Positions 27,908-64,000 of a DNA stretch of 64,000 nucleotides are shown here, in pieces. Made by a program: the position numbers and the translations under genes. Every line of letters starts with the position of its first letter. Position 1 is the first letter of the stretch. The stretch lies in assembly GCF_054482525.1 (NCBI RefSeq), contig NZ_CM137006.1; one strand, written 5' to 3'. Below the pieces are notes generated by a model, which had not been told where the DNA came from, did not search any database, and saw nothing but the letters and a program-made list of their open reading frames with translations.

Positions 27908-27912
27908 TCGTC

Positions 27913-28356: not shown

Positions 28357-28358
28357 GA

Positions 28359-30521: not shown

Positions 30522-30549
30522 CGACGCCTGCATTCGCACCGCCCCGTAG

Positions 30550-30579: not shown

Positions 30580-30613
30580 AAGCAAACCAGCTCATAAGTC
30601 GGGAGAACAACCT

Positions 30614-31453: not shown

Positions 31454-31455
31454 AG

Positions 31456-34350: not shown

Positions 34351-34354
34351 GAAC

Positions 34355-35101: not shown

Positions 35102-35116
35102 ATATAAGGGAAAACG

Positions 35117-35665: not shown

Positions 35666-35690
35666 ATTCAAAAATACAGAGGAATAAGAC

Positions 35691-36812: not shown

Positions 36813-36814
36813 GC

Positions 36815-37780: not shown

Positions 37781-37782
37781 TG

Positions 37783-39482: not shown

Positions 39483-39484
39483 TT

Positions 39485-40921: not shown

Positions 40922-41022
40922 CAGTTGAATAATCAACCGGATTAATTCTCCGGTAAATAACGACAAAAACAAAATTGGCCGTTTCGGTCAGGGCCAACTA
41001 TTGCCTGAAAAAGGGTAACGAC

Positions 41023-42393: not shown

Positions 42394-42404
42394 TGTCGGA
42401 TCTT

Positions 42405-42428
42405 CCCTTACCCCACTGCGGGTAAGGG
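42405..42428 (+). other. Stem-loop (9-bp stem) in the cpsG-wcaJ intergenic region; no U-tract, so probably a processing or stability element rather than a terminator
   Basis: CCCTTACCC cactgc GGGTAAGGG is a perfect inverted repeat. Confidence 0.4.
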
Positions 42429-42447
42429 GCTAATAACAGGAACAACG

Positions 42448-43842: not shown

Positions 43843-43843
43843 T

Positions 43844-45322: not shown

Positions 45323-45393
45323 GTTGTTGTTTTAGGCACTGGCAATAAAAACAACAACATAACCTCACCTGGCATCAAATTTATGAGGAAAAA

Positions 45394-46674
45394 ATGAAAT
45401 TACTTATTCTGGGCAACCACACTTGCGGCAATCGTGGCGACAGCGCCATCCTGCGAGGCTTACTTGATGCCATCAACATCCTCAATCCACATGCCGAAGT
45501 GGACGTGATGAGCCGCTATCCGGTCAGTTCTTCCTGGCTACTCAACCGCCCGGTAATGGGCGATCCGCTGTTCCTGCAAATGAAACAACATAACAGCGCG
45601 GCGGGCGTTGTCGGGCGCGTTAAAAAAGTCCTCCGTCGCCGCTACCAGCATCAGGTATTGCTCTCACGCGTCACCGACACTGGCAAGCTGCGTAATATCG
45701 CCATCGCCCAGGGATTCACCGACTTCGTGCGCCTGCTGTCAGGTTACGACGCCATTATTCAGGTCGGCGGATCGTTTTTTGTCGATCTCTACGGCGTGCC
45801 GCAGTTTGAACATGCGCTTTGCACGTTTATGGCGAAAAAGCCGCTGTTTATGATTGGTCACAGCGTCGGCCCCTTCCAGGATGAGCAATTTAACCAACTG
45901 GCGAACTACGTTTTCGGTCACTGTGACGCGCTGATCCTGCGCGAGTCGGTTAGCCTCGATCTAATGAAACGCAGCAATATCACCACTGCAAAAGTGGAAC
46001 ATGGCGTCGATACCGCGTGGCTGGTCGATCACCACACAGAAGATTTCACCGCCAGCTATGCCGTCCAACACTGGCTGGACGTTGCCGCACAACAGAAAAC
46101 GGTGGCAATTACCCTGCGCGAACTGGCACCGTTCGACAAACGTCTCGGCACCACTCAACAAGCGTATGAAAAAGCCTTTGCCGGGTTGGTCAATCGCATT
46201 CTCGACGAAGGGTATCAGGTGATTGCGCTCTCCACCTGTACGGGCATCGACAGCTATAACAAAGACGACCGCATGGTGGCGCTCAACCTGCGCCAGCACA
46301 TCAGCGATCCTGCCCGTTATCACGTAGTGATGGATGAACTCAACGATCTGGAAATGGGCAAAATTCTCGGTGCCTGTGAACTCACCGTCGGTACGCGCCT
46401 GCACTCGGCTATTATCTCGATGAACTTTGCCACTCCGGCAATTGCCATCAACTATGAACATAAATCCGCCGGGATTATGCAGCAGCTGGGGCTGCAAGAG
46501 ATGGCGATTGATATCCGTCATTTATTAGACGGCAGCCTGCAAGCGATGGTTGCGGATACCTTAGGCCAGCTTCCGGCGCTGAATGCGCGACTTAGTGAAG
46601 CCGTCAGTCGTGAGCGTCAGACAGGAATGCAGATGGTGCAGTCAGTGCTTGAGCGCATCGGGGAGGCGAAATGA
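45394..46674 (+). CDS. wcaK: Colanic acid biosynthesis pyruvyl transferase WcaK
   Basis: 426-aa ORF; position and length match wcaK. Confidence 0.88.
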   Translation: MKLLILGNHTCGNRGDSAILRGLLDAINILNPHAEVDVMSRYPVSSSWLLNRPVMGDPLFLQMKQHNSAAGVVGRVKKVLRRRYQHQVLLSRVTDTGKLRNIAIAQGFTDFVRLLSGYDAIIQVGGSFFVDLYGVPQFEHALCTFMAKKPLFMIGHSVGPFQDEQFNQLANYVFGHCDALILRESVSLDLMKRSNITTAKVEHGVDTAWLVDHHTEDFTASYAVQHWLDVAAQQKTVAITLRELAPFDKRLGTTQQAYEKAFAGLVNRILDEGYQVIALSTCTGIDSYNKDDRMVALNLRQHISDPARYHVVMDELNDLEMGKILGACELTVGTRLHSAIISMNFATPAIAINYEHKSAGIMQQLGLQEMAIDIRHLLDGSLQAMVADTLGQLPALNARLSEAVSRERQTGMQMVQSVLERIGEAK

Positions 46675-47891
46675 AGGTCGGCTTCTTTTTACTGAAATTC
46701 CCGCTGTCGTCAGAAACCTTCGTCCTCAACCAAATCACTGCGTTTATTGATATGGGCTTTGAGGTGGAGATTGTCGCGCTGCAAAAAGGCGACACCCAGA
46801 ACACCCACGCGGCATGGACGAAATACAACCTTGCCGCCAGAACCCGCTGGTTACAGGACGAACCTACGGGCAAAGTGGCGAAGCTGCGCCACCGCGCCAG
46901 CCAGACCTTACGCGGCATTCATCGTAAAAATACCTGGCAGGCGCTCAACCTCAAACGCTATGGTGCCGAGTCGCGGAACCTGATTTTGTCTGCCATTTGC
47001 GGCCAGGTCGCAACACCGTTTCGCGCCGATGTGTTCATCGCTCATTTTGGCCCGGCGGGGGTAACCGCAGCAAAACTACGGGAACTGGGTGTCATTCGCG
47101 GCAAAATCGCTACTATCTTCCACGGCATTGATATCTCCAGTCGGGAAGTGCTCAACCACTACACCCCCGAATATCAGCAACTGTTTCGCCGTGGCGATTT
47201 GATGCTACCGATAAGCGAGCTGTGGGCCGGAAGGCTGCAAAAAATGGGCTGCCCGAGGGAAAAAATCGCCGTATCGCGCATGGGCGTGGACATGACGCGC
47301 TTTAGCCCGCGTCCGGTGAAAGCGCCCGCAACGCCGCTGGAAATCATTTCCGTCGCACGCTTAACCGAGAAAAAAGGCCTGCATGTGGCGATTGAAGCCT
47401 GCCGTCAGTTGAAAGAGCAGGGCGTGGCATTTCGCTATCGCATCCTCGGCATTGGCCCGTGGGAACGACGCCTGCGCACCCTCATCGAACAATATCAACT
47501 GGAAGATGTGGTGGAGATGCCGGGCTTTAAACCGAGCCATGAAGTGAAAGCGATGCTCGATGACGCGGATGTCTTCCTGTTGCCATCGGTAACGGGTGCG
47601 GACGGTGATATGGAAGGTATTCCGGTGGCACTAATGGAAGCGATGGCGGTCGGCATTCCAGTAGTTTCCACTCTGCATAGCGGAATACCGGAACTGGTAG
47701 AGGCCGATAAATCCGGCTGGCTGGTGCCTGAGAACGATGCTCGCGCACTGGCGCAACGACTGGCGGCGTTTAGCCAACTGGACACCGACGAACTGGCTCC
47801 GGTCGTCAAACGCGCACGCGAAAAAGTCGAACACGATTTTAACCAGCAGGTGATCAATCGAGAACTCGCCAGCTTGCTGCAGGCTTTATAG
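46671..47891 (+). CDS. wcaL: Colanic acid biosynthesis glycosyltransferase WcaL (GT4)
   Basis: 406-aa ORF with the GT4 EX7E-type motif region ([29 protein letters not shown]). Confidence 0.88.
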
Positions 47892-47901
47892 AGGAGAACG
47901 C

Positions 47902-49296
47902 ATGCCATTTAAAAAACTCTCCCGACGCACCTTCCTGACGGCAAGCTCGGCGCTTGCCTTCCTCCATACCCCTTTCGCTCGCGCACTTCCCGACCAACAG
48001 AGCGTTAACATTAACGACTACAACCCTCACGACTGGATCGCCTCATTTAAACAAGCCTTCAGCGAAGGGCAAACAGTCGTCGTGCCTGCCGGATTGGTTT
48101 GCGACAATATCAACACCGGCATCTTCATTCCTCCTGGCAAAACGTTACACATCCTTGGAAGCCTGCGCGGCAACGGCAGAGGGCGATTTGTTTTACAGGA
48201 CGGCAGCCAGGTGACAGGGGAGGAGGGCGGCAGTATGCATAACATCACCCTGGATGTGCGTGGTTCTGACTGCACCATCAAAGGGTTGGCGATGAGCGGC
48301 TTTGGCCCGGTAACGCAGATTTATATCGGCGGCAAAAACAAACGGGTCATGCGCAACCTGACCATCGATAACTTGACCGTTAGCCACGCTAATTACGCCA
48401 TTTTACGCCAGGGATTTCATAACCAGATTATCGGTGCCAACATCACCAACTGTAAGTTCAGCGACTTACAGGGCGACGCCATTGAATGGAACGTGGCAAT
48501 TAACGACAGTGATATTTTGATTTCCGACCACATCATCGAGCGCATCAACTGTACTAACGGAAAAATCAACTGGGGCATTGGCATAGGCCTTGCGGGAAGT
48601 ACCTACAATAACAATTACCCGGAAGACCAGACAGTGAAAAATTTTGTTGTGGCGAATATCACGGGATCGGATTGTCGGCAGTTGATACATGTTGAAAATG
48701 GTAAACATTTTGTTATTCGTAATATCAAAGCCCGCAATATCACACCGGATTTCAGTAAGAAAGCAGGTATTGATAACGCCACAGTTGCTATTTATGGTTG
48801 TGACAACTTTGTGATTGATAATATTGAAATGATTAATAGTGCCGGGATGTTAATCGGCTATGGGGTAATTAAAGGCAAATATCTCTCGATACCGCAGAAT
48901 TTCCGGGTGAATAATATTCAACTGGATAATACTCATCTTGCTTATAAATTGCGCGGCATTCAAATCTCCGCCGGGAATGCTGTCTCCTTTGTGGCGCTGA
49001 CTAACATTGAGATGAAGCGTGCGTCGCTGGAGTTACACAACAAACCGCAACATCTTTTTATGCGTAATATCAATGTGATGCAGGAATCCTCAGTTGGACC
49101 CGCATTGAGCATGAACTTCGACATGCGCAAAGACGTACGAGGTGTCTTTATGGCGAAAAAAGAAACACTGCTATCTCTTGCAAATGTTCATGCGGTGAAT
49201 GAAAGAGGGCAAAGCTCTGTCGATATCGACAGGATTAATCACCATATTGTTAATGTGGAAAAGATTAACTTTAGATTGCCGGAACGGAGGGAGTAG
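47902..49296 (+). CDS. wcaM: Colanic acid biosynthesis protein WcaM
   Basis: 464-aa ORF with a Tat/Sec-like N-terminus ([21 protein letters not shown]); last gene of the colanic acid cluster. Confidence 0.88.
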
Positions 49297-49453
49297 ATTT
49301 GCGACCATTCATAAACTTACTGGATATAATGTTCTAAAAGATTATAATCCTCACACTAACTGTTAAAGCTGGGGCTGGGCAGCATTGACTACTCAGGGAA
49401 GGTACTCATCTTTATCTTGTGTTTCTTACGTAACAACCAGACTAAAGTGATTT

Positions 49454-50449
49454 ATGAACGATAACGTTTTGCTCATAGGAGCTTCCGGATTCGTAGGAAC
49501 CCGACTACTTGAAACGGCAATTGCTGACTTTAATATCAAGAACCTGGACAAACAGCAGAGCCACTTTTATCCAGAAATCACACAGATTGGCGATGTTCGT
49601 GATCAACAGACACTCGACCAGGCGTTAGCCGGTTTTGACACTGTTGTACTACTGGCAGCGGAACACCGCGATGATGTCAGTCCTACTTCTCTCTATTATG
49701 ATGTCAACGTTCAGGGTACCCGCAATGTACTGGCGGCCATGGAAAAAAATGGCGTTAAAAATATCATCTTTACCAGTTCCGTTGCTGTTTATGGTTTGAA
49801 CAAACACAACCCTGACGAAAACCATCCACACGACCCTTTCAACCACTACGGCAAAAGTAAGTGGCAGGCAGAGGAGGTGCTGCGTGAATGGTATAACAAA
49901 GCACCAACAGAACGTTCATTAACCATCATCCGTCCTACCGTTATCTTCGGTGAACGCAACCGCGGTAACGTCTATAACTTGCTGAAACAGATCGCTGGCG
50001 GCAAGTTTATGATGGTGGGCGCAGGGACTAACTATAAGTCCATGGCTTATGTTGGAAACATTGTTGAGTTTATTAAGTACAAACTGAAGAATGTTGCCGC
50101 AGGTTATGAGGTTTATAACTACGTTGATAAGCCAGACCTGAACATGAACCAGTTGGTTGCTGAAGTTGAACAAAGCCTGAACAAAAAGATCCCTTCTATG
50201 CACTTGCCTTACCCACTAGGAATGCTGGGTGGATATTGCTTTGATATCCTGAGCAAAATTACGGGCAAAAAATACGCTGTCAGCTCTGTGCGCGTGAAAA
50301 AATTCTGCGCAACTACACAGTTTGACGCAACGAAAGTGCATTCTTCAGGTTTTGTGGCACCGTATACGCTGTCGCAAGGTCTGGATCGAACTCTGCAGTA
50401 TGAATTCGTCCATGCCAAAAAAGACGACATAACGTTTGTTTCTGAGTAA
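49454..50449 (+). CDS. gne: NAD-dependent epimerase of the Gne/Gnu type (UDP-GalNAc or GlcNAc-PP-undecaprenol 4-epimerase family)
   Basis: 331-aa ORF with a Rossmann N-terminus (LLIGASGFVGTRLLE), located between wcaM and galF. Assignment rests on the fold and this characteristic position. Confidence 0.7.
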   Translation: MNDNVLLIGASGFVGTRLLETAIADFNIKNLDKQQSHFYPEITQIGDVRDQQTLDQALAGFDTVVLLAAEHRDDVSPTSLYYDVNVQGTRNVLAAMEKNGVKNIIFTSSVAVYGLNKHNPDENHPHDPFNHYGKSKWQAEEVLREWYNKAPTERSLTIIRPTVIFGERNRGNVYNLLKQIAGGKFMMVGAGTNYKSMAYVGNIVEFIKYKLKNVAAGYEVYNYVDKPDLNMNQLVAEVEQSLNKKIPSMHLPYPLGMLGGYCFDILSKITGKKYAVSSVRVKKFCATTQFDATKVHSSGFVAPYTLSQGLDRTLQYEFVHAKKDDITFVSE

Positions 50450-50691
50450 TGCAGACGAGTCAGAGAAAAAAGGACCAGGTTAGACTACGATTATTCGGAA
50501 AGAGGTACTGATTAAATTATCAGTATGTGGATTTCCGAGTAATCCGAGTAACCCAGATGCTGATGGTGTGTAGTGTTATCGTAAGGTTTAATCAAAGTTA
50601 TGCGGAGCTAAGCTTTGGTATATAGCCATAACGTTTGGCTAACCTATGGCAATAATTTACGCACTATCAGCCACTTAGAGGTAGGAAAAGA

Positions 50692-51585
50692 ATGACGAAT
50701 TTAAAAGCAGTTATACCGGTAGCAGGTCTTGGGATGCATATGTTGCCTGCCACTAAGGCGATACCCAAAGAGATGCTACCGATCGTCGACAAGCCAATGA
50801 TTCAGTACATTGTTGACGAGATTGTGGCTGCAGGGATCAAAGAAATCCTCCTGGTAACTCATGCGTCCAAGAACGCGGTCGAAAACCACTTCGACACCTC
50901 TTATGAATTAGAATCTCTCCTTGAACAGCGCGTGAAGCGTCAGCTGCTGGCGGAAGTGCAGTCGATCTGTCCACCGGGAGTGACCATTATGAACGTGCGT
51001 CAGGGCGAACCTTTAGGTTTAGGCCACTCCATTTTGTGTGCGCGACCCGCCATTGGCGACAACCCATTTGTCGTGGTACTGCCAGACGTAGTGATCGACG
51101 ACGCCAGCGCCGACCCGCTGCGCTACAACCTTGCTGCCATGATTGCGCGCTTCAATGAAACGGGCCGTAGCCAGGTGCTGGCAAAACGTATGCCGGGTGA
51201 CCTTTCTGAATACTCCGTTATTCAGACCAAAGAGCCGCTGGATCGTGAAGGCAAAGTCAGCCGCATTGTTGAATTTATCGAAAAACCGGATCAGCCGCAG
51301 ACGCTGGACTCAGACATCATGGCCGTTGGTCGCTATGTGCTTTCTGCGGATATTTGGCCGGAACTTGAACGCACTCAACCTGGTGCATGGGGGCGTATTC
51401 AGCTGACTGATGCCATTGCTGAACTGGCGAAAAAACAGTCCGTTGATGCAATGCTGATGACCGGTGACAGTTACGATTGTGGCAAGAAAATGGGCTATAT
51501 GCAGGCGTTTGTGAAGTATGGACTGCGCAACCTGAAAGAAGGGGCGAAGTTCCGTAAAGGTATTGAAAAGCTGTTAAGCGAATAA
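50692..51585 (+). CDS. galF: UTP-glucose-1-phosphate uridylyltransferase paralogue GalF
   Basis: 297-aa ORF starting [41 protein letters not shown]; marks the 5' flank of O-antigen clusters. Confidence 0.93.
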
Positions 51586-51838
51586 TGAAAATCTGACCGG
51601 ATGTAACGGTTGATAAGAAAATTATAACGGCGGTGAGGATTCGTGGGGCTAATTGTACTCATTGCCTCATTCTTTCTTTATACCGTTCTAAATATGAGTA
51701 ACAATAACTTTTCAATAGGCATTTATTGTGGGAGGCTGAGATTTTCTCCATCTCTGAAGCGATTTGGTAAAACGTTCAGAGTTAAGCTTTTCGAACTAAC
51801 CATAACGGTTAATGCTAGTTACAACTAGGACATGCATG

Positions 51839-51877
51839 CAGTACGCTGGTAGCTGTTGAGCCAGGGGCGGTAGCGTG
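51839..51877 (+). promoter_or_regulatory. JUMPstart element with ops site (GGCGGTAGCGTG) in the O-antigen cluster leader
   Basis: CAGTACGCTGGTAGCTGTTGAGCCAGGGGCGGTAGCGTG has the same architecture as the wza-leader element; ops core at 51866-51877, about 80 bp upstream of wzx. Confidence 0.85.
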
Positions 51878-51957
51878 AATTAAATGTTTATCCCATATTA
51901 CTTAACAAATTGTAAACTATCGTGCAAAATAAGACTTGTTAAGTACGTAGGCTCGTT

Positions 51958-53193
51958 ATGTTAAAAAACATCATCTATTTATTAAGCGTTCAAGGTGGCA
52001 ATTATATATTTCCATTGGTCACACTGCCTTATCTTGTCAGGATCCTTGAACCTACAGGATACGGGATATATGGGTATAGTTTTGCTGTGGTCCAATATTT
52101 TATATTATTTATTGATTACGGATTTAACTACTCAGCGCCCAAAATCATATCAATATCAAGGGAAAATACTGATTCCATAAGTAAAGTTTTTTGGAATGTA
52201 ACGTTTATCAAAATAATTGCAGCATCTCTTGGTTTGTTAATTATTTATTTAATTTCGGAATTGAATATCATTGATTACCAAATTAAATTTATCATTCTTG
52301 CATACATATCTGTCGTAGGAAATTTAATATATCCAGTATGGTTTTTTCAAGGGCTGGAAAAAATGTTAGGAATAGCGATAAGTATGTTTTCCGCACGCTT
52401 ACTTACACTATGTTTAACATTTTTATTGGTTAAAAGTGAAAAGGATCTTGGTATAGCGATAACAATACAATCATCAATAACAGTTATTGCAGGTATAATA
52501 TCTACATATTTTTTATTTTCTCTTAAAAAAATAATATGGGTACCACCATCCTTATCCAAAATGAAAGAGTTAATTTATGATGGATGGCATTACTTCATTT
52601 CCTCTGCAGCAATAAGCCTTTATACTACTAGTTCAACAATAATATTAGGTGCATTATCAGGAACAACTGCAGTGGGATATTTTATCGCTGCAGATAAAAT
52701 TAGGCTTGCACTACAAGGCGTTATTGGTCCTATAACCCAAGCTGTTTTTCCTAGAGTAACTTATATAATGAAGGATAATCATGACGATGGACTATTATTA
52801 GCCAGGAAAGTGTTTCGATGGCAATTTTCACTGATGTTCGTACTTTCCATATTTCTTTACTTTTTTGCAGACGATATAATTTTAATCATGTATGGAAAAA
52901 CGTATCATGAATCTTTAGAAATACTCAAGGTTTTAGCTTTTACTCCAGCAATAGTTACGGTAAGTAATTATATTGCAATTTTAGTAATGATCCCTATTGG
53001 TATGAAAAAAGAATTTACAAAAATTATTACTACCAGTGGATTAATAGGCCTACTGATAATTACTTATTTGACTAATGAATACTCAGGAGTTGGTACAGCA
53101 ATAGGAGTTATTTCAACTGAGTTTATAATAATGGCGAGATTTTACTTTTTGATTAAGAAAACAAATAAATTAAATAATTTAAATTTATTGTAG
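51958..53193 (+). CDS. wzx: O-antigen flippase Wzx
   Basis: 411-aa AT-rich polytopic membrane ORF with a PST-family N-terminus (...IFPLVTLPYLVRILEPTGYGIYG...). Confidence 0.8.
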   Translation: MLKNIIYLLSVQGGNYIFPLVTLPYLVRILEPTGYGIYGYSFAVVQYFILFIDYGFNYSAPKIISISRENTDSISKVFWNVTFIKIIAASLGLLIIYLISELNIIDYQIKFIILAYISVVGNLIYPVWFFQGLEKMLGIAISMFSARLLTLCLTFLLVKSEKDLGIAITIQSSITVIAGIISTYFLFSLKKIIWVPPSLSKMKELIYDGWHYFISSAAISLYTTSSTIILGALSGTTAVGYFIAADKIRLALQGVIGPITQAVFPRVTYIMKDNHDDGLLLARKVFRWQFSLMFVLSIFLYFFADDIILIMYGKTYHESLEILKVLAFTPAIVTVSNYIAILVMIPIGMKKEFTKIITTSGLIGLLIITYLTNEYSGVGTAIGVISTEFIIMARFYFLIKKTNKLNNLNLL

Positions 53194-53201
53194 GGCTAAC
53201 A

Positions 53202-53927
53202 ATGAATAAACCAACTTTAACAATAGTTACCGTTGTGTACAATGGCGAAATGTATATCGAAGATACTATAAAAAGTGTCTTATCACAAAACTGCAATGAT
53301 GACATTGAATATATTATAATTGATGGTGCATCAACGGATAATACTCTAAATATTGTTAATTCTTACAAAAATGAAATTTCATATATCATTTCTGAAAATG
53401 ATAATGGTATATATGATGCAATGAATAAAGGTGTGTTAAAAGCATCTGGAAATTATATAGGATTTATAAACGCTGATGATTTTTATAATAAAGATGTATT
53501 ATGTCAAGTAATAAAAGTAATGAAAGAAAATAAATATGATGTTATTTATGGAAATATGTCTTTGGTAGAGGCTGATAGCTTGGATGTTATTCAGGTCCGG
53601 AGGCCTAAAGACTGGAAACTACATATAGATATGAATTTAAGCCATCCGGCCACATTTATTAGAAAAGATATCCACAGAGAAAATTTATTTAATACTAGCT
53701 ATAAAATTGCTTCTGATTATGATCTTTTGCTAAAATTGAAGAAACAAGGTTATATCTTTCATTATATTGATAAAAATATCTCTTCGATGAGAAATGCCGG
53801 CCTTAGCGCTAAAAATGTAAAATTAGCATTGGAGGAAGCGAGACAAATCCGAAAGAAAAGAAACGGGAAATTATATGCGGCGTTAGCAGATATTTACCTA
53901 TTTATGAGAAAAGTTATAAAAAGATGA
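53202..53927 (+). CDS. O-antigen glycosyltransferase, GT2 family (WcaE-like)
   Basis: 241-aa ORF with IIIDGASTDNT and [11 protein letters not shown] motifs shared with WcaE. Confidence 0.75.
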   Translation: MNKPTLTIVTVVYNGEMYIEDTIKSVLSQNCNDDIEYIIIDGASTDNTLNIVNSYKNEISYIISENDNGIYDAMNKGVLKASGNYIGFINADDFYNKDVLCQVIKVMKENKYDVIYGNMSLVEADSLDVIQVRRPKDWKLHIDMNLSHPATFIRKDIHRENLFNTSYKIASDYDLLLKLKKQGYIFHYIDKNISSMRNAGLSAKNVKLALEEARQIRKKRNGKLYAALADIYLFMRKVIKR

Positions 53928-55159
53928 TTAATAGAAACATAAAAATTAGTGCTTCATTTATTTCAATAATTTATTTGCCTTTTGCTTTATTATTAGCAAT
54001 GATTGAAATGATTAATGGGGCCAGATGGAGTGTTTATGTATGTTCATTTATGCTAGGGGTACTAGCATTTTTGTTAATACCTTATGAAAATTGGGATTTG
54101 ACTAGGCATTATGAAACATATTTATATGTTAGTCAAACATCACTAAACAAAGTTTTTGAAAATAGTGACAATAGATATATTACAATAAATACTGTTATTT
54201 ATTTATTTAAATCTTTAGGAATAAAAAAAGAATTTTTACCTTTTTTTTCAACATTTTTATCATATATTTTTTATTTTAATATATATGTTAATCACATTAA
54301 AAAATACAATCCGGAATTATCTCATAGATGTATATATTTATATATTCTAATAAGCGTAATCCCATTTTTTGCTATAGCTAGTTCATTGCGGCAATATCTT
54401 GCATTTAGTATTATGCTTTATATGATCATACAGTATTTCACCAGTGAAAATAATAGGTATAAGTCACAAAAAATTATATTCTCTGCAATTATTTCATGTT
54501 GTATTCATCCCAGCGCAATACTATTGCTAGGTGTTTTTTTTGTTAGCAAATTAATAAGACTTAACAAAACAATATTGTATTTAATAATATTAGTTCTAAT
54601 CCTTAACCATGATGGATTAATATCTTCTTTGCTATTTCAATTGATTAGGCCATTATTGGAAAGCTTAGGTTTTTACTTTCCCGAATATATGGACTCTGTA
54701 ACCATAGGCATAAGCAATAGCTTGCTGAGCACTAATGAATATATCTTGAATAAGATCATATTACCGTCAGTGTTTTTTATTTTTACTTTTATCTATTTAA
54801 TTTTATTTAATAAAAAAATGACGAGGCAAGAGTCACAAATCAAAAATTTTTGCAGTTTACTTCTTTTGCTGATATGCCTTTTATCGTTATCGCCTGATTT
54901 ATTTTATCGATTTTCCATTTTCTGGGTGTTATTATATAGTTATATATTTTTCTCCTACGATATTAATAAAATTAGCAAACTATGTAAGCATCTGATCTTC
55001 TTAATACTCATTACCGCATGTTCAATCATAAATTTGGCACAGGCAAATATGGGTAAAGATATTATTTATGTGTCTTGGTGCGATATATTGTATAAGCCCT
55101 CATTATTCCTATTCAATAAAGAAGTTAAATCAGCAGAATATATAAGAGTGAGTCAATAA
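53924..55159 (+). CDS. wzy: O-antigen polymerase Wzy
   Basis: 411-aa very hydrophobic, AT-rich ORF with many predicted membrane segments and no recognisable catalytic motif, as is typical of Wzy. Confidence 0.7.
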   Translation: MINRNIKISASFISIIYLPFALLLAMIEMINGARWSVYVCSFMLGVLAFLLIPYENWDLTRHYETYLYVSQTSLNKVFENSDNRYITINTVIYLFKSLGIKKEFLPFFSTFLSYIFYFNIYVNHIKKYNPELSHRCIYLYILISVIPFFAIASSLRQYLAFSIMLYMIIQYFTSENNRYKSQKIIFSAIISCCIHPSAILLLGVFFVSKLIRLNKTILYLIILVLILNHDGLISSLLFQLIRPLLESLGFYFPEYMDSVTIGISNSLLSTNEYILNKIILPSVFFIFTFIYLILFNKKMTRQESQIKNFCSLLLLLICLLSLSPDLFYRFSIFWVLLYSYIFFSYDINKISKLCKHLIFLILITACSIINLAQANMGKDIIYVSWCDILYKPSLFLFNKEVKSAEYIRVSQ

Positions 55160-55160
55160 A

Positions 55161-56228
55161 ATGTCCATTGGAGTCTTTAAGCTGTATGAAAATAAAATAG
55201 GTGGCACTGAGAAAGCAGTTGAAAATCTAATTGATATATTAACTAAAAACAGCCTACAAGTGAGATGTTTTTCAGCAATAAACGCACAAGAGATACAAGT
55301 TAGAGAAGATAATCGGAAAACCTACTTATTCCAAGACAATACTGCATATGAAGAAAGCAAATTAAGGTTTTACATTAAATATTTGTTTTTTTTGAGTGCC
55401 AAAAGTAAAGACCTTGAATTAATAATTTCCACGGATATAGCTACATCATCATTATTGTTATTGATTGGTTTTTTTCGGTGTAATAAGAATAAAATTATTT
55501 GCTGGGAACATTATCCATTTGACAAGAATAGTATTTTTTGGAGAAAAGTATTTAAATTTCTTTTGTCTCTTAATAAAAAAGCTGTAGTAGTTTGTAATTC
55601 TCACAAGGAAAAAGATAAGTTTACTTTTTGTAAAAGGGTTGTAATTATACCAAATTCAATCAAAACGCAAAAATATAAGCGCATACATCAAGGAAAAGAA
55701 ACTCTTGATTTGATTTATATTGGTCGGATTGTTAAAGATAAAGGAGTTGAAAGGTTAATTAATGCAGTAATAAATCACCCGTCTACAAAAAAGTATGTTT
55801 TACACATTGTAGGAGGTGGTCAAGAGCTGGAGTATCTCAAATCTAAATATAAGAATAACAACCAAATACACTTTCATGGACCGAGTTTAAACACAGATGT
55901 TTTTTTGGCAAAAAGTGATGTTTTTGTATCCGGTTCATACTTTGAATGTTTTCCTGTTACAATACTTGAAGCTATGTCCTACGGATTACCTGTAATTTCA
56001 ATGGATATATCTGGAGGGACAAGTAGCGTGATTTCTTCATCGGGTGGCGGATTTGTGTGTCAATCTCAAATTGAATTTCAGGAAAAACTAACTTACTTTG
56101 AAGATAATGTTAAACGAACCGAACACGGAAATGCAGGATTCCTATTCGTGAATAGACATTATACAGAAGAAATAGTTAGTGCTCAGTGGATGAGTTTGAT
56201 CAATCGAGCCAATAGTCAAGAAAATTAA
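55161..56228 (+). CDS. O-antigen glycosyltransferase, GT4 family
   Basis: 355-aa ORF with a GT-B C-terminal motif region (...SGSYFECFPVTILEAMSYGLPVIS...). Confidence 0.75.
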   Translation: MSIGVFKLYENKIGGTEKAVENLIDILTKNSLQVRCFSAINAQEIQVREDNRKTYLFQDNTAYEESKLRFYIKYLFFLSAKSKDLELIISTDIATSSLLLLIGFFRCNKNKIICWEHYPFDKNSIFWRKVFKFLLSLNKKAVVVCNSHKEKDKFTFCKRVVIIPNSIKTQKYKRIHQGKETLDLIYIGRIVKDKGVERLINAVINHPSTKKYVLHIVGGGQELEYLKSKYKNNNQIHFHGPSLNTDVFLAKSDVFVSGSYFECFPVTILEAMSYGLPVISMDISGGTSSVISSSGGGFVCQSQIEFQEKLTYFEDNVKRTEHGNAGFLFVNRHYTEEIVSAQWMSLINRANSQEN

Positions 56229-56248
56229 GGTATTGGAGCTATTAAAGT

Positions 56249-57265
56249 ATGAGCATACTTGTGACTGGTGGGGCTGGCTATATTGGCTCACATGCTATAT
56301 TAACTTTATTGCAAAATGGATATGATGTTATATCGCTAGATAATTATTGCAATTCCTCTCCAAAATCTCTAGAACGAGTAGAGGAAATTTGCTTATCTAA
56401 GATAAAAAAATTACGTGGTGATATTAGAGATAGACATATATTAAAAAATATCTTTTCAAAATATAATGTTTCTACTGTAATGCATTTTGCGGGTTTAAAA
56501 TCTGTTAACGAGTCCATTAAAAAACCATTAGAATATTACGACACAAATCTTTTGGGGACTCTAATATTACTTGATGAAATGCAGAAAGCGAATATTTCTA
56601 ATCTAATTTTTAGTTCGTCTGCTACTGTCTATGGCAATCCTCATTATGTTCCAATATCTGAAAAACACCCTGTCGGTGAGGTGATCAATCCGTACGGTCG
56701 TTCAAAGTTTATGGTGGAACATATATTGCGTGATTTTTGTAACGCGAATAGCGACGCAAATATCACAATACTAAGATATTTTAATCCTGTAGGTGCTCAT
56801 AAGACTGGATTAATTGGAGAAGATCCTTTAGGAACTCCTAATAACCTGTTTCCCTATGTTGCGCAAGTCGCAATTGGAAAATTACCCTATCTAAATGTTT
56901 TTGGTAATAAATATATGACAAAAGATGGAACAGGTGTAAGAGATTATATCCATGTAGTCGATTTAGTTGAGGGGCATCTTGCCGCTTTAAAAAATCTCAA
57001 TAGAAACCGGGGGCTTAAAGTTTTTAATTTAGGCACTGGTCAAGGTTATAGTGTGTTAGATATCATCGACGCTTTTAAACTGGAAACAGGACGCGATATA
57101 CCTTTCCGTATCGTTTCTGAGCGAAATGGAGATGTGGCTGAATGTTGGTCCGATCCTTCCTTAGCAAACGAGCAGCTAAGTTGGGTTGCTAAAAGGACTC
57201 TTAATAATATGGTGGAAGATGCATGGAGATGGCAAACAATGAATCCAAATGGATATAAAGAGTAA
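56249..57265 (+). CDS. GalE-family UDP-hexose 4-epimerase (UDP-Glc/Gal or UDP-GlcNAc/GalNAc)
   Basis: 338-aa ORF starting MSILVTGGAGYIGSH..., with catalytic YGRSK. Substrate specificity cannot be told from sequence alone. Confidence 0.8.
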   Translation: MSILVTGGAGYIGSHAILTLLQNGYDVISLDNYCNSSPKSLERVEEICLSKIKKLRGDIRDRHILKNIFSKYNVSTVMHFAGLKSVNESIKKPLEYYDTNLLGTLILLDEMQKANISNLIFSSSATVYGNPHYVPISEKHPVGEVINPYGRSKFMVEHILRDFCNANSDANITILRYFNPVGAHKTGLIGEDPLGTPNNLFPYVAQVAIGKLPYLNVFGNKYMTKDGTGVRDYIHVVDLVEGHLAALKNLNRNRGLKVFNLGTGQGYSVLDIIDAFKLETGRDIPFRIVSERNGDVAECWSDPSLANEQLSWVAKRTLNNMVEDAWRWQTMNPNGYKE

Positions 57266-57333
57266 ATTGAAACAATTATAATCATCCATTTCATTGCTTA
57301 CTGTATTGTTATCTATATATATGAAAACAAAAA

Positions 57334-58341
57334 ATGAAAATATTATATGATGGGATTGTGAAAAGTTTACAATCATATGGTGGTATCACTGTATACTTTG
57401 AAGAAATCATTAAGAGATTAAAAAATGACGAATACAAATTCATTCAATTTAATGATAAAAATGAAAATCACAATGATGATCTCCATCGGCCATGCCGGTT
57501 TTTAGAACGATATAGATGTTTTGAAGCATTAAAAAGTGATTCAGATTACAGTATATTTCATTCTACATATTATCGGGTTCCGAAAGATGGGGAATATGCG
57601 GTTGTGACCACGGTCCACGATTTCACATATGAATTGTATATGAAAGGACTTCGGCGCAATGTTCATAGCTTACAAAAAAGATGGGCTGTGAAACATAGCG
57701 ATGCAATCATTTGTGTCTCTAATAATACAGCCAAGGATTTAATTAATTTCTTTAAGGTTGATGAAAAAAAGATACATGTTATTCATAATGGTGTATCGGA
57801 AGATTATAGACACTTAAATCTAGAAAAAGAAAATTTTGTGCTTTTTGTCGGTGCTCGTTCAGGATATAAAAATTTTGAGCTTGCAGTTAAAGCCGTTTCT
57901 AAACTTTTTGATACTAATCTTAAAATAGTCGGCGGAGGTGGTTTAAATAAAGCAGAAATGAAGTTACTATCTGAATATCTTCCAGAAAGATTCCAGTACT
58001 TAGGGAAGGTATCAAATGAAAAACTAAATATATTATATAATTCGGCTTATTGCTTAATCTATCCTTCAGAATATGAAGGGTTTGGAATTCCCTTGCTTGA
58101 GGCTATGCGAACTGGCTGTCCTGTGATAGCCGTAAATAGATCATCAATACCCGAGGTTGTGGGGGATAGTGCGATTTTAGTCGAAGAAGTATCAATTGAA
58201 AGTTTATTCTCAGCTTTATTAAGTGTAGAAGCTAACGCTAATGAATTAAAAAATAAAGGATTAGCGCAATCTAATAAATTTTCATGGGGGAAGTGTTTCT
58301 CCGAAACATATAATCTATATAAATCACTATCTAAGTTTTGA
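57334..58341 (+). CDS. O-antigen glycosyltransferase, GT4 family
   Basis: 335-aa ORF with the motif region ...[25 protein letters not shown]... Confidence 0.75.
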
Positions 58342-58351
58342 GAGGTTATTT

Positions 58352-59473
58352 ATGTGTAAGAAAGCTTTAATTACAGGAATTACCGGGCAAGATGGTTCCT
58401 ACTTGGCAGAATTTCTGCTTAAAAAAGGCTATGAGGTTCATGGAATAAAACGTCGATCTTCCTTGTTTAATACTGACCGTATTGATCATATATATCAAGA
58501 CCCACACCATCGTAATTTAAAATTACAACTTCATTATGGTGATTTAACAGATACTTCTAATTTGACTCGGATATTATCTGAAGTTCAACCTGATGAAGTT
58601 TATAATCTTGGCGCAATGAGTCACGTAGCTGTTTCCTTCGAATCCCCAGAATATACAGCTGATGTTGATGCTATAGGTACTTTACGATTATTGGAAGCTA
58701 TTCGTTTTTTGGGATTAGAAAAAAAAACCCGATTTTATCAGGCGTCAACCTCTGAATTGTATGGATTAGTTCAGGAAGTTCCACAAAAAGAGACAACGCC
58801 GTTCTATCCTCGTTCACCTTATGCCGTAGCTAAACTGTATGCATATTGGATCACTGTAAACTATCGTGAGTCTTATGGAATGTATGCATGTAACGGTATT
58901 TTGTTCAATCATGAATCCCCACGTCGTGGGGAAACGTTTGTAACACGTAAAATCACACGTGCTATAGCTAATATATCGCAGGGAATAGAAAAATGCTTAT
59001 ATCTTGGCAACATGGATTCTTTACGCGATTGGGGGCATGCGAAAGATTATGTTCGTATGCAATGGATGATGCTTCAACAAGACCAGCCAGAAGACTTTGT
59101 TATTGCCACCGGCAAACAAATATCTGTACGTGAATTTGTCCGTATGTCTGCTAAAGAAGTTGGACTTGAACTTGAGTTTTCCGGTACTGGTGTTGATGAG
59201 ATTGCATTTGTTGTAAATAAAACATCAGATTGCGCCGTTGGTGTTAATATTGGTGATGTTATTGTTCGCGTTGACCCTCGTTATTTTCGACCAGCAGAAG
59301 TTGAAACTCTTCTTGGTGATCCAACAAAAGCAAAAAATGTCTTGGGTTGGGAGCCAGAGATTACAGTTGAAGAAATGTGTGCAGAAATGGTGGCTAGTGA
59401 TTTAGAAAAAGCTAAACAGCATGCACTTCTTAAAAGCCATGGTTTTGACGTGGCAGTCTCTTTGGAGCGTTAA
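58352..59473 (+). CDS. gmd: GDP-mannose 4,6-dehydratase (O-antigen copy)
   Basis: 373-aa ORF with high protein similarity by eye to the colanic-acid Gmd (35691..36812), but with AT-rich codon usage. Confidence 0.93.
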
Positions 59474-59476
59474 AGT

Positions 59477-60442
59477 ATGACCAAGAAGCGAATTTTTGTG
59501 GCTGGACATCGTGGGATGGTTGGTTCTGCTATTTGTCGTCAATTATTAGCACGTAATGATGTTGAGTTAATTGTCAAAACTCACAAAGAACTCGATTTGA
59601 CAGTTCAAAAGGATGTTGAATGTTTTTTTGAGCAAGAGAGAATAGATCAGGTTTACCTTGCAGCAGCAAAAGTAGGAGGAATTCATGCTAATAACACTTT
59701 TCCAGCTGAATTTATTTATCAGAACCTTCTTATTGAAAGCAATATTATTCACTCATCTTACAAAGCGGGCATAAAGAAACTATTATTCTTAGGGTCAAGT
59801 TGTATCTATCCAAAGTTTGCAGAACAGCCAATGAAAGAATCTGCACTTTTGACGGGAACTCTTGAGCCTACTAATGAGCCTTATGCTATTTCCAAAATAG
59901 CAGGTATAAAGCTATGTGAATCTTATAATCGCCAATATGGATGTGATTATCGCAGTGTAATGCCTACTAACTTATATGGTATGAATGATAATTTTCATCC
60001 CAATAACTCACATGTAATTCCAGCGCTTATGCGGCGTTTTCATGAAGCAAAGGAACTTGGTTTAAATGAAGTGGTTGTCTGGGGAACGGGAACTCCAAAA
60101 CGCGAGTTTTTATATGTTGATGATATGGCCGCTGCATCAGTATATGTGATGGAGCTTGATGATGAAATTTATAAAAAAAATACTCAACCAATGTTATCTC
60201 ATATTAACGTAGGTACTGGTGTTGATTGTTCCATACGTGAAATGGCAGAAACAATGGCTTTAGTTGTTGGCTATGATGGAAAAATTGTTTTTGATATAAC
60301 AAAACCAGATGGTTCGCCTCGTAAACTTATGGATGTTACACGCCTTGAGAATTTGGGTTGGAAATATCGTTATAATTTAAAACAAGGACTAGAATTAACA
60401 TATAAATGGTTTATAAATAATCTTGACTCATTTAGGAGTTAA
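59477..60442 (+). CDS. fcl: GDP-L-fucose synthase (O-antigen copy)
   Basis: 321-aa ORF starting [19 protein letters not shown]..., paralogous to the colanic-acid Fcl. Confidence 0.93.
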
Positions 60443-60444
60443 TA

Positions 60445-60900
60445 TTGAACAAGAGATTAGAAACAGAGTTATTTAAATCAATAGTTGAACATACTCCACT
60501 AATCTCGATAGACCTTATTATAAGAAACGAAGATGGTAAGGCGCTGCTTGGTCAGCGCCTTAATCGTCCAGCACAAAATTATTGGTTTGTGCCGGGGGGA
60601 CGGATTCTTAAAGATGAGTCTTTCGAGAACGCATTCAAAAGAGTTACTTTAGAAGAATTGGGTGTTCAAATTAGCATTAATGAAGCAAAATTTCTTGGGA
60701 TTTATGAACATTTCTACAGCGACAATTTTTCTGGGACTTGTTTTTCAACTCATTATGTCGTACACGGATATGAGATTAGTTTGATGCCACATCAAATTAA
60801 CTATCCAACACTACAACATAGTACTTACAATTGGTTCGATATAGCCGAATTGTTAGCTAATTCCTCAGTTCATCAGTACACAAAAAATTATTTTAAGTGA
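60445..60900 (+). CDS. gmm: GDP-mannose mannosyl hydrolase (Nudix; O-antigen copy)
   Basis: 151-aa ORF with an apparent TTG start at 60445, seven nt after an AGGAG; similar to the colanic-acid Gmm core (...NYWFVPGGR...). Confidence 0.75.
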   Translation: MNKRLETELFKSIVEHTPLISIDLIIRNEDGKALLGQRLNRPAQNYWFVPGGRILKDESFENAFKRVTLEELGVQISINEAKFLGIYEHFYSDNFSGTCFSTHYVVHGYEISLMPHQINYPTLQHSTYNWFDIAELLANSSVHQYTKNYFK

Positions 60901-60911
60901 AGGTTATTTAT

Positions 60912-62297
60912 ATGCTACTTCCTGTTGTAATGGCCGGTGGTTCTGGAACTAGATTGTGGCCACTTTCTCGAACACTATATCCGAAGCAATTCCTATCGTT
61001 AACTAGTCGTTTGACTATGCTACAAGAGACCTTAAGAAGGCTTGAAGGGGTTGAACATCGTCCTGCTCTGGTTATTTGTAATGAAGTTCATCGTTTTATC
61101 GTTGCAGAACAGATGCGTAATGTAAATTTAGCGAATAGTGGCATTTTACTAGAGCCGATAGGTCGTAATACAGCCCCCGCAGTTGCGCTTGCTGCTCTTA
61201 AAGCGATTTCATCAGGTGAGGATCCAATACTGCTTGTACTAGCAGCCGATCATGAAATACAAGACCAAAAGCGCTTTATATCGTCAATATTGGCTGCAAA
61301 AGAATTTGCAGAGGAAGGTAAGCTGGTAACTTTTGGTATTGTGCCAACCAAACCCGAAACTGGATATGGCTACATAAAAACCGGAGAAAATTTAAATGAA
61401 TATGGTTTTAAAGTTTCTGCTTTTGTTGAAAAGCCTGAGCTAGATGTGGCCAAAAAATATCTTGAAGATGGAGATTATCTTTGGAATAGTGGAATATTCA
61501 TGTTTAGGGCTTCTGTGTTTATTGATGAGTTGAATAAATTTAGACCAGACATACTAAAAATATGCCAACAAGCATTGAAGTCCTCTACACAAGATCTTGA
61601 TTTTATCCGTATAGATAATGACTCATTTAGTTGTTGCCCTGAAGAATCCATTGATTACGCTGTTATGGAGAAAACAACAGAGGCTGTGGTAGTTCCATTA
61701 AATGCCCACTGGAGCGATGTTGGTTCTTGGTCTGCATTATGGGAAATTAGCAGAAAAGATAAAAGTGGAAATGCAATTAGAGGAGATGTATTAATTCATG
61801 ATTCTTCTGACAGTTATCTTTACTCACAACATAGATTAATTGGTGTAGTAGGAGTTAAAGATTTAGTAGTTGTTGAAACTAAAGATGCTATTCTCGTTGC
61901 GCATAAAGATAAAGTTCAACAGGTAAAAAATATTGTAGAAAAACTTAAAGTTAATAACCGTACGGAATATCTGCAGCATCGTGAAATATTTAGGCCATGG
62001 GGCAGTCATGACTCTATAGCGGAAGGATCTCGATTTGAGGTTAAACATGTCGTTATTCATCCTGGACATAAAACTGCTAAACAGATTCATTACCATCGTA
62101 CTGAGCATTGGATTGTTGTTTCTGGAACAGCAAAAGTCCATTATGAAGATGAAATATTTCTTGTTTCTGAAAATGAATCAACTTATATACCAATAGGTGT
62201 ACCTCATTTTATTGAGAATCCAGGAAAGATCCCTTTGGAGATTATTGAGGTACGTTCAGGTGTCTACTTGGATGAAGATGATGTTGTTAGAATCTAA
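60912..62297 (+). CDS. manC: Mannose-1-phosphate guanylyltransferase (O-antigen copy)
   Basis: I place the start at the ATG at 60912 ([20 protein letters not shown]...); the ORF track uses an in-frame GTG at 60897. Paralogue of cpsB. Confidence 0.88.
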   Translation: MLLPVVMAGGSGTRLWPLSRTLYPKQFLSLTSRLTMLQETLRRLEGVEHRPALVICNEVHRFIVAEQMRNVNLANSGILLEPIGRNTAPAVALAALKAISSGEDPILLVLAADHEIQDQKRFISSILAAKEFAEEGKLVTFGIVPTKPETGYGYIKTGENLNEYGFKVSAFVEKPELDVAKKYLEDGDYLWNSGIFMFRASVFIDELNKFRPDILKICQQALKSSTQDLDFIRIDNDSFSCCPEESIDYAVMEKTTEAVVVPLNAHWSDVGSWSALWEISRKDKSGNAIRGDVLIHDSSDSYLYSQHRLIGVVGVKDLVVVETKDAILVAHKDKVQQVKNIVEKLKVNNRTEYLQHREIFRPWGSHDSIAEGSRFEVKHVVIHPGHKTAKQIHYHRTEHWIVVSGTAKVHYEDEIFLVSENESTYIPIGVPHFIENPGKIPLEIIEVRSGVYLDEDDVVRI

Positions 62298-62380
62298 AAT
62301 GATGCTGGATACTAATGCAACATTATTATTCGTAATGCTGTACTGACGTTATTTAATTATGATTATTATTGGATGTTAAA

Positions 62381-63127
62381 ATGAAAGTCAGTATTATTAC
62401 AGTGACTTATAATAGTGAAAAGACTTTAAGGGATACTTTAGAGTCAATAGAGTTGCAAACCTATAAAGATATAGAGTATATAATTATTGATGGTGGTTCT
62501 ACAGATAATACGTTAAAACTAATTAACGAAGTATCAACAAGAGTAACCAAATGTCTATCAGAAAGCGATAACGGTATCTATGATGCTTTAAATAAAGGTA
62601 TAAATTTATCTACGGGAGATATTATTGGATTCGTTCATTCTGATGACCTTTTAGCAAGACCTGATATTATTGAAACTATTGTAAGCCGTTTCCATGAGAC
62701 AAAAGCGGATGTTGTATACGGTGATTTGGTTTTTTTCGAAAAAAACCAAACTGATATAATCAAACGATACTGGCGTAGTGGTCCTTTTAAACGTTCTAAG
62801 CTATCATTAGGCTGGGCACCACCGCATCCATCTTTCTATATGAGGAGGGAATTATATAAAGACGATGGATATTTTGATTTATCCTATAGGATTGCTGCAG
62901 ACTATGATCAGATGGTCAGGATTTTGAAACGTGATGATATTAAAGTTATTTATGTTCCTCAAGTATTTGTAAAGATGAGATTGGGTGGGGAAAGTACCAG
63001 AATTGATAACGCGATATCAAGTACAAAGGAAATTGTAGAAGTTATGAAAAACCATAATGTAAATTGGAAAATTGCTATCATTATCAGAAAAATCTCAAAA
63101 CTAATGCAATTGTTTGCGCATAAATAA
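62381..63127 (+). CDS. O-antigen glycosyltransferase, GT2 family (WcaE-like)
   Basis: I place the start at the ATG at 62381 (MKVSIITVTYNSEKTL...), with IIIDGGSTDNT and DNGIYDALNKG motifs; the ORF track starts at a TTG at 62369. Confidence 0.75.
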   Translation: MKVSIITVTYNSEKTLRDTLESIELQTYKDIEYIIIDGGSTDNTLKLINEVSTRVTKCLSESDNGIYDALNKGINLSTGDIIGFVHSDDLLARPDIIETIVSRFHETKADVVYGDLVFFEKNQTDIIKRYWRSGPFKRSKLSLGWAPPHPSFYMRRELYKDDGYFDLSYRIAADYDQMVRILKRDDIKVIYVPQVFVKMRLGGESTRIDNAISSTKEIVEVMKNHNVNWKIAIIIRKISKLMQLFAHK

Positions 63128-63151
63128 TTTTATTATTGGTAAGGTTTTTAT

Positions 63152-64000
63152 ATGAAAAAATTAACCTGCTTTAAAGCCTATGATATTCGCGGGAAATTAG
63201 GCGAAGAACTGAATGAAGATATTGCGTGGCGCATTGGTCGCGCCTATGGCGAATTTCTCAAACCGAAAACCATTGTGTTAGGCGGTGACGTCCGCCTCAC
63301 CAGCGAAACCTTAAAACTGGCGCTGGCGAGAGGTTTACAGGATGCGGGCGTCGATGTGCTGGATATCGGCATGTCCGGCACCGAAGAGATCTATTTCGCC
63401 ACGTTCCATCTCGGCGTGGATGGCGGCATTGAAGTTACCGCCAGCCATAATCCGATGGATTATAACGGCATGAAGCTGGTTCGCGAGGGGGCTCGCCCGA
63501 TCAGCGGAGATACCGGACTGCGCGACGTCCAGCGTCTGGCTGAAGCCAACGACTTTCCTCCCGTCGATGAAACCAAACGCGGTCGCTATCAGCAAATCAA
63601 CCTGCGTGACGCTTACGTTGATCACCTGTTCGGTTATATCAATGTCAAAAACCTCACGCCGCTCAAGCTGGTGATCAACTCCGGGAACGGCGCAGCGGGT
63701 CCGGTGGTGGACGCTATCGAAGCCCGCTTTAAAGCCCTCGGCGCACCTGTGGAATTGATCAAAGTGCACAACACGCCGGACGGCAATTTCCCCAACGGTA
63801 TTCCTAACCCGCTGCTGCCGGAATGTCGCGACGACACCCGCAATGCGGTCATTAAACACGGCGCGGATATGGGCATTGCCTTTGATGGCGATTTTGACCG
63901 CTGTTTCCTGTTTGACGAAAAAGGGCAGTTTATCGAGGGCTACTACATTGTCGGCCTGCTGGCAGAAGCGTTCCTCGAAAAAAATCCCGGCGCGAAGATC
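63152..64000 (+). CDS. manB: Phosphomannomutase (O-antigen copy), 5' 283 codons; the gene continues past the right edge of the window
   Basis: Starts [14 protein letters not shown]... Nucleotide sequence is nearly identical to cpsG from the ATG onward and is GC-rich, unlike the AT-rich genes just upstream. Confidence 0.9.

Follow-up and report, generated by a model that had tools for sequence, protein, structure and literature searches.

A chimeric phosphomannomutase gene in the Escherichia coli O11 O-antigen cluster and the 22-kb-spaced direct repeat that it forms with colanic-acid cpsG

The stretch of DNA analysed here, 64,000 nucleotides of contig NZ_CM137006.1 (assembly GCF_054482525.1) and referred to below as the window, carries two phosphomannomutase genes in the same orientation. 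One is cpsG, which lies among the colanic-acid genes, and the other is manB, at the end of the O-antigen cluster, which runs past the window end (Table 1). Over its last 6.7 kb (57300-64000) the window matches E. coli PCN033 (NZ_CP006632.1) at 100% identity, and on the strength of this match the remainder of manB was taken from PCN033. The wzx and wzy of that strain are annotated as members of the O11 family. In PCN033 manB is 1371 nt long and is followed by gnd, ugd and wzzB. Names for the genes between cpsG and manB come from the window ORFs, from the PCN033 annotation (the epimerase gene, galF and the O11 cassette) and from the colanic-acid equivalents in related records. The spacer between cpsB and cpsG (40922-41022) measures 101 nt in PCN033 and in FDAARGOS_1249 as against 192 nt in most of the other strains fetched (14279-14470 in one comparator record), and these lengths are consistent with the REP-element indels that Iguchi 2011 reported for this spacer (PMC3158064).

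Table 1. Positions of the two phosphomannomutase genes, the repeat copies and the surrounding features, in window coordinates.
Feature	Coordinates	Strand	Evidence
Colanic-acid gmd, fcl, gmm, wcaI, cpsB (GC-rich control paralogues)	35691..40921	+	
cpsG, colanic-acid phosphomannomutase, 456 aa, between cpsB and wcaJ	41023..42393	+	ORF; NF011943; motifs TASHNP, DGDFDR, GEMSAHH
Copy A of the 1,333-bp direct repeat	41023..42355	+	Self-BLAST of the PCN033 region, 96.6%
Interval between the repeat copies: wcaJ, wzxC, wcaK, wcaL, wcaM, GlcNAc-PP-Und 4-epimerase gene, galF, whole O11 cassette	42356..63151	+	
Low-GC O11 cassette: wzx, GT2, wzy, GT, galE, GT4, gmd, fcl, gmm, manC, GT2	51958..63127	+	GC 26-39%
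O-antigen gmd, fcl, gmm, manC (AT-rich, 52-69% identical to the colanic-acid copies)	58352..62297	+	
AT-rich spacer from GT2 stop to manB ATG; 5' limit of homology with the cps locus	63128..63151	+	24% upstream identity
O11 O-antigen manB, first 849 of 1371 nt; start of copy B	63152..64000	+	Alignment; full CDS annotated in PCN033 region record 13853-15223
manB beyond the window end: repeat would stop at 64484, stop codon at 64522		+	PCN033 record

At the protein level the two genes are very similar. Both products match the NCBIfam CpsG model NF011943 over residues 1-456 of 456, at 1052.7 bits for manB and 1052.9 bits for cpsG (cutoff 801). The motifs TASHNP, DGDFDR and GEMSAHH, which we take to be the catalytic phosphoserine loop, the metal-binding loop and the sugar-binding loop of the alpha-D-phosphohexomutase superfamily, occur at identical positions in both proteins (96, 245 and 327). 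Comparison of the genes gave a dN of 0.005 and a dS of 0.14 (dN/dS ~0.035), and both copies appear to encode intact putative phosphomannomutases held under purifying selection. The annotation of O11 strain 48 gives frameshifted pseudogenes for cpsG and gmd of the colanic-acid locus, with the O-antigen copies intact (record 26397-27766 and 32068-33188), and to judge from it the O-antigen manB may be the sole working phosphomannomutase of the strain. In RefSeq (PGAP) the O-antigen manB is named 'cpsG: colanic acid biosynthesis phosphomannomutase CpsG' in every serogroup that we examined, leaving two genes of the same name ~22 kb apart; this double naming arises because the body of manB is of the cps type.

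The initial annotation had proposed near-identity of the two genes from the start codon onward (63152 versus 41023), and this was borne out when they were aligned position by position. Between cpsG 41023-41871 and manB 63152-64000 there are 30 mismatches in 849 nt and no gaps, an identity of 96.5%, and the estimate of about 7 mismatches in the first ~150 nt proved to be exact. Almost all of these differences (27 of 30) fall at third codon positions, and the encoded proteins differ at 3 of 283 residues in this part. The spurious antisense ORFs previously pointed out at 41505-41747 and 63634-63876 do yield 80-aa peptides with two differences (F31L and M54I), and they are displaced from each other by 22,129 nt, exactly as are the two ATGs. 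Upstream of the start codons the resemblance ends, as had also been noted: the 150 nt 5' of the cpsG ATG and the 150 nt 5' of the manB ATG are 24% identical, which is the level of random, unrelated sequence.

Base composition changes at the same boundary. Replacement by cps-type DNA would be expected to leave a compositional break, and manB, at 54% GC and 62.5% GC3, does stand in a cluster whose eleven upstream O-antigen genes have 26-39% GC and 23-30% GC3, including the adjoining GT2 at 32% GC; the AT-rich character earlier ascribed to these neighbours is thus correct. The pathway neighbours of manB provide a control, since gmd, fcl, gmm and manC also have colanic-acid paralogues in the window, and their nucleotide identities to them are 69%, 65%, 52% and 60%, respectively. 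Had manB and cpsG been no closer than these pairs, ordinary paralogous divergence would have sufficed. The interior of manB far exceeds 52-69%, so ordinary paralogy fails as an account, and the combination that a cps-type replacement would produce, >95% identity beside diverged pathway neighbours, is what we found (96.5-96.6%). The similarity of manB to cpsG is far beyond chance or ordinary paralogy.

The 3' end of the similarity lies beyond the window and was read in PCN033. Self-BLAST of the PCN033 region delimits a direct repeat of 1,333 bp at 96.6% identity, running from the ATG to gene nucleotide 1333 and ending 38 nt before the stop codon. The repeat of at least ~850 bp and ~22 kb spacing initially described therefore has its full length at 1,333 bp and its offset at 22,129, and the 3' boundary of the tract, left for later alignment, is an abrupt collapse of homology at nt 1333 of 1371. 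Over the full gene manB and cpsG differ at 62 positions, of which 17 are crowded into the last 38 nt. Past nt 1333 manB continues as an AT-rich tail, and the sequence downstream of the gene is unrelated to the cps locus. The tail nevertheless encodes a homologous C-terminus, EEKTKLILALLNK, which aligns to 13 residues of CpsG; the manB product ends in ...EEKTKLILELLNK. We conclude that the last 38 nt of manB and the manB-gnd spacer are of a different, AT-rich origin, and that manB is a mosaic in which a GC-rich cps-type body lies between an unrelated AT-rich 5' spacer and an AT-rich 3' tail. At the 5' end no remnant is visible in O11. Its manB matches cpsG at each of the first 25 nt, so that the 5' junction may fall within the gene or ahead of it, and the 3' tail is the one feature suggesting that O11 possessed a manB before the cps-type body arrived.

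No low-GC manB of the CpsG family with an O11-type tail was found among the other E. coli clusters inspected, which included SCEC020001, the O17 group and O55. SCEC020001 has the gene order of the O11 3' end, gmd-fcl-gmm-manC-GT2-manB-gnd, with a low-GC (38%) phosphomannomutase of another family (record 7171-8595). A low-GC gene of another family, with ~24% amino-acid identity to CpsG, occupies the manB position in the O17/O44/O73/O77/O106 group as well (record 6403-7824). Both were considered as the original manB and rejected, being of a different family with 24% amino-acid identity to CpsG, and for that reason they say nothing about where the tail came from. The O55 manB was rejected likewise: it belongs to the CpsG family, but it is 78% identical, has 51% GC and ends in a different tail. 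Judging from these clusters, E. coli O-antigen loci appear to use two types of phosphomannomutase that are unrelated at the DNA level, and a repeat with cpsG would be possible with the CpsG type only.

Comparison with the manB of other serogroups, suggested at the outset, was carried out on 11 cpsG/manB pairs, that of PCN033 and those of ten more genomes, from O11 (five strains), O6 (two), O125ac, O43, O7 and O157, and our detailed population analysis is confined to these 11 genomes. A cps-type body is present in all of them and across all six serogroups. Every O-antigen manB has 54-55% GC, and in every serogroup the repeat is 1323-1339 nt long and ends at gene nucleotide ~1332-1333. The AT-rich 3' tail is common to O11, O125ac, O43, O7 and O6, with another tail in O157, and the manB genes of O7, O6 and O157 have serogroup-specific first codons. 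The tail reads as the remnant of a non-cps gene end, as do the first codons in O7, O6 and O157. Because these three serogroups have first codons of their own and the tail is shared by five of the six, the arrangement indicates that cps-type DNA replaced the interior of pre-existing homologous genes, with junctions at the extreme ends.

Over the core of the gene (nt 31-1332) there is not one fixed difference between manB and cpsG, and 75 of the 174 polymorphic sites are polymorphic at both loci; fixed differences start at nt 1334, with nine in the 38-nt tail. Occasional ectopic exchange with cpsG would have kept the loci free of fixed differences, and some of the shared polymorphism could stem from separate acquisitions of distinct cpsG alleles. 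The nearest-neighbour statistic Snn was 0.84 (P=0.004), or 0.75 (P=0.027) without near-duplicates, and this significance implies that the manB and cpsG pools are partly differentiated and that exchange is not free. When the full manB was searched against 5,426 complete E. coli genomes, 4,677 matched, with ~1,035 extra matching places, from which we estimate that about one complete genome in five has a second cps-type copy. Some complete genomes show up to 6 places matching cps-type manB; fragmented hits are one possible reason, and additional clusters for the mannose pathway or amplification of the interval are others.

The extent of cps-type DNA may differ in other serogroups. It does not reach into the O6 manC, which is annotated 'cpsB' and has ~72% identity to cpsB. 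A chimeric query was assembled from cpsB, the first 1333 nt of cpsG, the manB tail and gnd. In O75 strains its match to the O-antigen locus already starts at query nt 422, within cpsB, and this suggests that manC as well as manB is of the cps type in O75, with a direct repeat extended by ~2.4 kb. Certain O75 records show a single matching place and may be deletion derivatives.

Within serogroup O11 itself, manB parts company with the genes beside it. Across the O11 cassette, wzx through the final glycosyltransferase, five O11 genomes agree at 99.3-100%. Of the four compared with PCN033, three fall to 96.3-96.9% at manB, with 95-96% in the manB-gnd spacer and 95.5-96.0% in gnd; the fourth, 2016C, has a manB 99.85% identical to that of PCN033. 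Hence manB behaves as part of the recombining manB-gnd flank and not as part of the serogroup-specific cassette. This pattern agrees with that in O157, for which Iguchi 2011 (PMC3158064) reported greater divergence in manB than in the other eleven genes (dN/dS 0.045) and put forward gene conversion with cpsG. Parts of the O11 3' module also occur in other serogroups. O125ac (record 31749-37919), compared with window 58352-64000, has fcl, gmm, manC and GT2 at 99.6-99.8% and gmd at 96.3%, with unrelated wzx, wzy and other glycosyltransferases, and in O43 (record 27718-33885) the identity to O11 is 82% in gmd, 86% in fcl and 91% in gmm and climbs to 96.4-96.8% in manC and GT2. Both look like products of modular assembly, with a divergence gradient of the kind that Reeves described for Salmonella. 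In O11 strain ES7 (record 26590-28602 and 34355-35740) an IS1 splits wzy, manC has an internal stop and a second IS1 lies between ugd and wzzB, so that this strain is probably rough by a route other than manB/cpsG deletion.

The two repeat copies lie on the + strand and share a perfectly identical block of up to 132 bp, and at 1333 bp and 96.6% identity they have the orientation, length and similarity required for homologous recombination. Unequal crossing-over between them is predicted to remove 22,129 bp comprising wcaJ-wcaM, galF and the whole O-antigen cluster. Products of such an event were sought as records in which the chimeric query matches as a single place; six showed the deletion pattern, and three were examined in detail. 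In FDAARGOS_1249, O157:H7 7.1_Anguil and isolate 127, cpsB is followed by one phosphomannomutase gene, and all three lack wcaJ-wcaM, galF and those O-antigen genes that precede manB. The hybrid gene is directly followed by gnd in FDAARGOS_1249 and isolate 127, with the ISAs1 remnant and perB of O157 in between in 7.1_Anguil. Each hybrid was compared with both parental-type genes of a related strain. That of 7.1_Anguil has a single clean crossover at nt 1113-1123 and no private changes, and that of isolate 127, in an O6 background, crosses over at nt 13-72. The FDAARGOS_1249 hybrid is of the manB type at 59 of 60 informative sites, measured against a comparator that is not its exact parent, and its crossover presumably lies near the 5' end.

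The suggestion that the repeat is a substrate for deletion is therefore supported by natural cpsB-hybrid-gnd recombinants in RefSeq, which are seen in strains other than PCN033; the window retains the interval along with two intact copies. It is supported also by the same deletion in two published cases. The O14 type strain lost its O-antigen cluster through recombination between two manB genes, according to Jensen and Reeves 2004 as cited in Liu et al. 2019 (PMC7685785). In the LTEE, founded on REL606 in which manB and cpsG are 96% identical, manB/cpsG recombination accounted for seven rearrangements, and 10 of 12 populations lost the region, with a mapped deletion of 23,293 bp in population Ara-1 (Raeside 2014, PMC4173774). 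These LTEE deletions demonstrate that 96% identity suffices for recombination.

The high identity beginning at the ATG and the mere 22 kb between copies in direct orientation could be taken to mean recent gene conversion within the PCN033 lineage, the resident cpsG having overwritten manB or the reverse with little divergence since, and Iguchi 2011 did invoke gene conversion to explain manB variation among O157 strains (PMC3158064). Our data make this very improbable. A dS of 0.14 is hard to reconcile with a recent event, and the resident cpsG is not the nearest one: among 60 sampled matches listed, the best foreign cpsG has 97.7% identity over nt 1-1333 against 96.6% for the resident gene. 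In the 5,426 complete genomes, matches to manB of at least 99% are limited to 56 records, and every other best match, cpsG alleles included, falls below 99%. Counted over nt 31-1332 in the 11 genomes, mean mismatches were 44.1 between cpsG alleles, 42.6 between manB alleles, 43.9 between cpsG and manB of the same genome and 46.2 between cpsG and manB of different genomes, and the PCN033 manB has 43 mismatches to its resident cpsG against 36-50 to the cpsG of other strains. The closer kinship of copies sharing a genome that recent conversion would create does not appear in either comparison. Furthermore, O11 manB alleles are closest to other manB alleles, and a GENECONV-like permutation test on runs of concordant polymorphic sites detected no significant conversion tract between the resident copies of PCN033 (P=0.55), nor did any of the 11 genomes fall below 0.05. 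Divergence between PCN033 and other strains is 1-5% in the colanic-acid genes and 3.1-3.8% in cpsG; taken with the core mismatch counts, this means that the manB-cpsG distance is simply the normal allelic distance between lineages in this region. The exchange is not a recent one between the two copies now resident in this genome; it is old and species-wide. Of the gene conversion or recombination first proposed, then, the mosaic replacement stands on composition, abrupt ends and the 52-69% identity of the other paralogues, but an event of recent date between the resident copies does not.

Drawing on the mosaic structure and junctions observed, on the pattern across the population and on deletion products from other strains, we favour, at a probability of roughly 0.85, a chimeric origin of O11 manB: a cpsG-type body from codon 1 to nt 1333, acquired by an old species-wide replacement and subject to later exchange, which forms a 22.1-kb-spaced repeat capable of deleting the O-antigen genes. 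Under this reading cps-type DNA would have replaced the interior of an existing O-antigen manB in an old event not specific to this genome, the direction presumably being from the cps locus into the O-antigen locus. From then on manB would have recombined along with its gnd flank, with occasional ectopic exchange with cpsG, and recombination between the repeat copies, probably RecA-dependent, would cause loss of wcaJ-wcaM, galF and the O-antigen cluster and leave one hybrid phosphomannomutase gene next to gnd. A complete cpsG copy could alternatively have been placed at the cluster end by duplication or insertion, with no pre-existing manB to convert, and the identity of the first 25 nt to cpsG in O11, O125ac and O43, with homology beginning at the ATG, would suit such an origin. 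We nonetheless consider it unlikely, as homology ends 38 nt before the stop although the tail codes for a homologous C-terminus, and as serogroup-specific first codons persist in O7, O6 and O157, along with a distinct tail in O157; retained gene ends fit interior replacement of an existing homologous gene better than insertion. Strong selection on the protein (dN/dS ~0.035) might also be thought to have kept two ordinary paralogues alike, through purifying selection and convergence of codon usage without any recombination, but protein selection cannot keep synonymous sites this close or maintain a GC3 of 62.5% in a cluster of 23-30%. Codon-usage convergence was rejected on the abrupt junctions and on the paralogue control, in which gmd, fcl, gmm and manC, under similar constraint, reach just 52-69%, and we give ordinary paralogy almost no credence. 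Less credible still, to the point of being negligible, is a false second copy created by assembly or collapse, given that 62 differences separate the two full-length copies, that the same arrangement recurs in 97 complete genomes and that it is annotated independently in many serogroups.

Chimeric replacement of manB as favoured here may be set beside several known systems. Santoyo and Romero, in a 2005 review listed among the references of PMC3715488, are said to treat gene conversion as a cause of concerted evolution in bacterial paralogues such as tuf and rrn. manB and cpsG resemble such families in their lack of fixed differences, their shared polymorphisms and their sharply bounded tract; unlike them, the copies within one genome are not homogenised (3.4% apart), so any homogenisation is that of a species pool and not within a genome. 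In Salmonella enterica, a different species from the E. coli O11 host, Jensen and Reeves (2001, Microbiology 147:599) reportedly described chimeric or cps-related manB genes in O-antigen clusters. In Gal-initiated Salmonella groups manBC has 36-41% GC and is not of the cps type (Reeves et al. 2013, PMC3715488). For E. coli O157, replacement of manB by the colanic-acid gene was described by Samuel, Hogbin, Wang and Reeves 2004 (J Bacteriol 186:6536), as cited in Iguchi et al. 2011 (PMC3158064). The O11 case is like that of O157 in having an O-antigen manB >95% identical to cpsG, GC-rich inside an AT-rich cluster, and in showing more variation in manB among strains of one serogroup than in the rest of the cluster. 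The O157 repeat is 1339 nt long at 96.0% identity. Unlike the O11 gene, O157 manB starts with codons of its own (MKS...), ends in a 3' tail of its own and is succeeded by an ISAs1 remnant and perB instead of gnd, whereas O11 shares both its tail and its manB-gnd spacer with O125ac, O43, O7 and O6. With O14 and the LTEE strains O11 has in common direct repeats ~96% identical and ~22-23 kb apart (23,293 bp in Ara-1 against the 22,129 bp predicted here); those are observed deletion products, unlike the window, in which both copies and the interval are intact.

Replacement (Samuel 2004), deletion (Jensen and Reeves 2004; Raeside 2014) and the idea of conversion (Iguchi 2011) are thus already published, and O11 adds no new principle. 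A literature search that was not aimed at O11 returned no publication on the O11 case specifically. The additions made here are small ones: a 3' repeat end common, within a few bases, to six serogroups; the absence of fixed differences between manB and cpsG; the sharp drop of identity in O11 at the GT2/manB boundary; and deletion recombinants in three RefSeq genomes.

The repeat provides one route by which E. coli can become rough and colanic-acid-negative in a single step, and such a loss matters for serotyping, for sensitivity to phage and serum and for laboratory evolution. The manB/cpsG repeat can be collapsed or mis-joined in short-read assemblies, and manB is an unreliable serogroup marker because its variation is like that of flanking DNA. 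Tentatively, and at somewhat less than even odds, we would go further and regard cpsG and the O-antigen manB as a single species-wide allele pool, in which ongoing ectopic exchange is frequent enough to leave no fixed difference across 1.3 kb, up to a hard stop at nt 1333, in six serogroups or more, and in which the 5' edge of manB is a preferred right-hand crossover in cassette transfer. If this were true, cps-type manB would serve as a portable homology arm with a part in serogroup switching as well as in loss of the O antigen.
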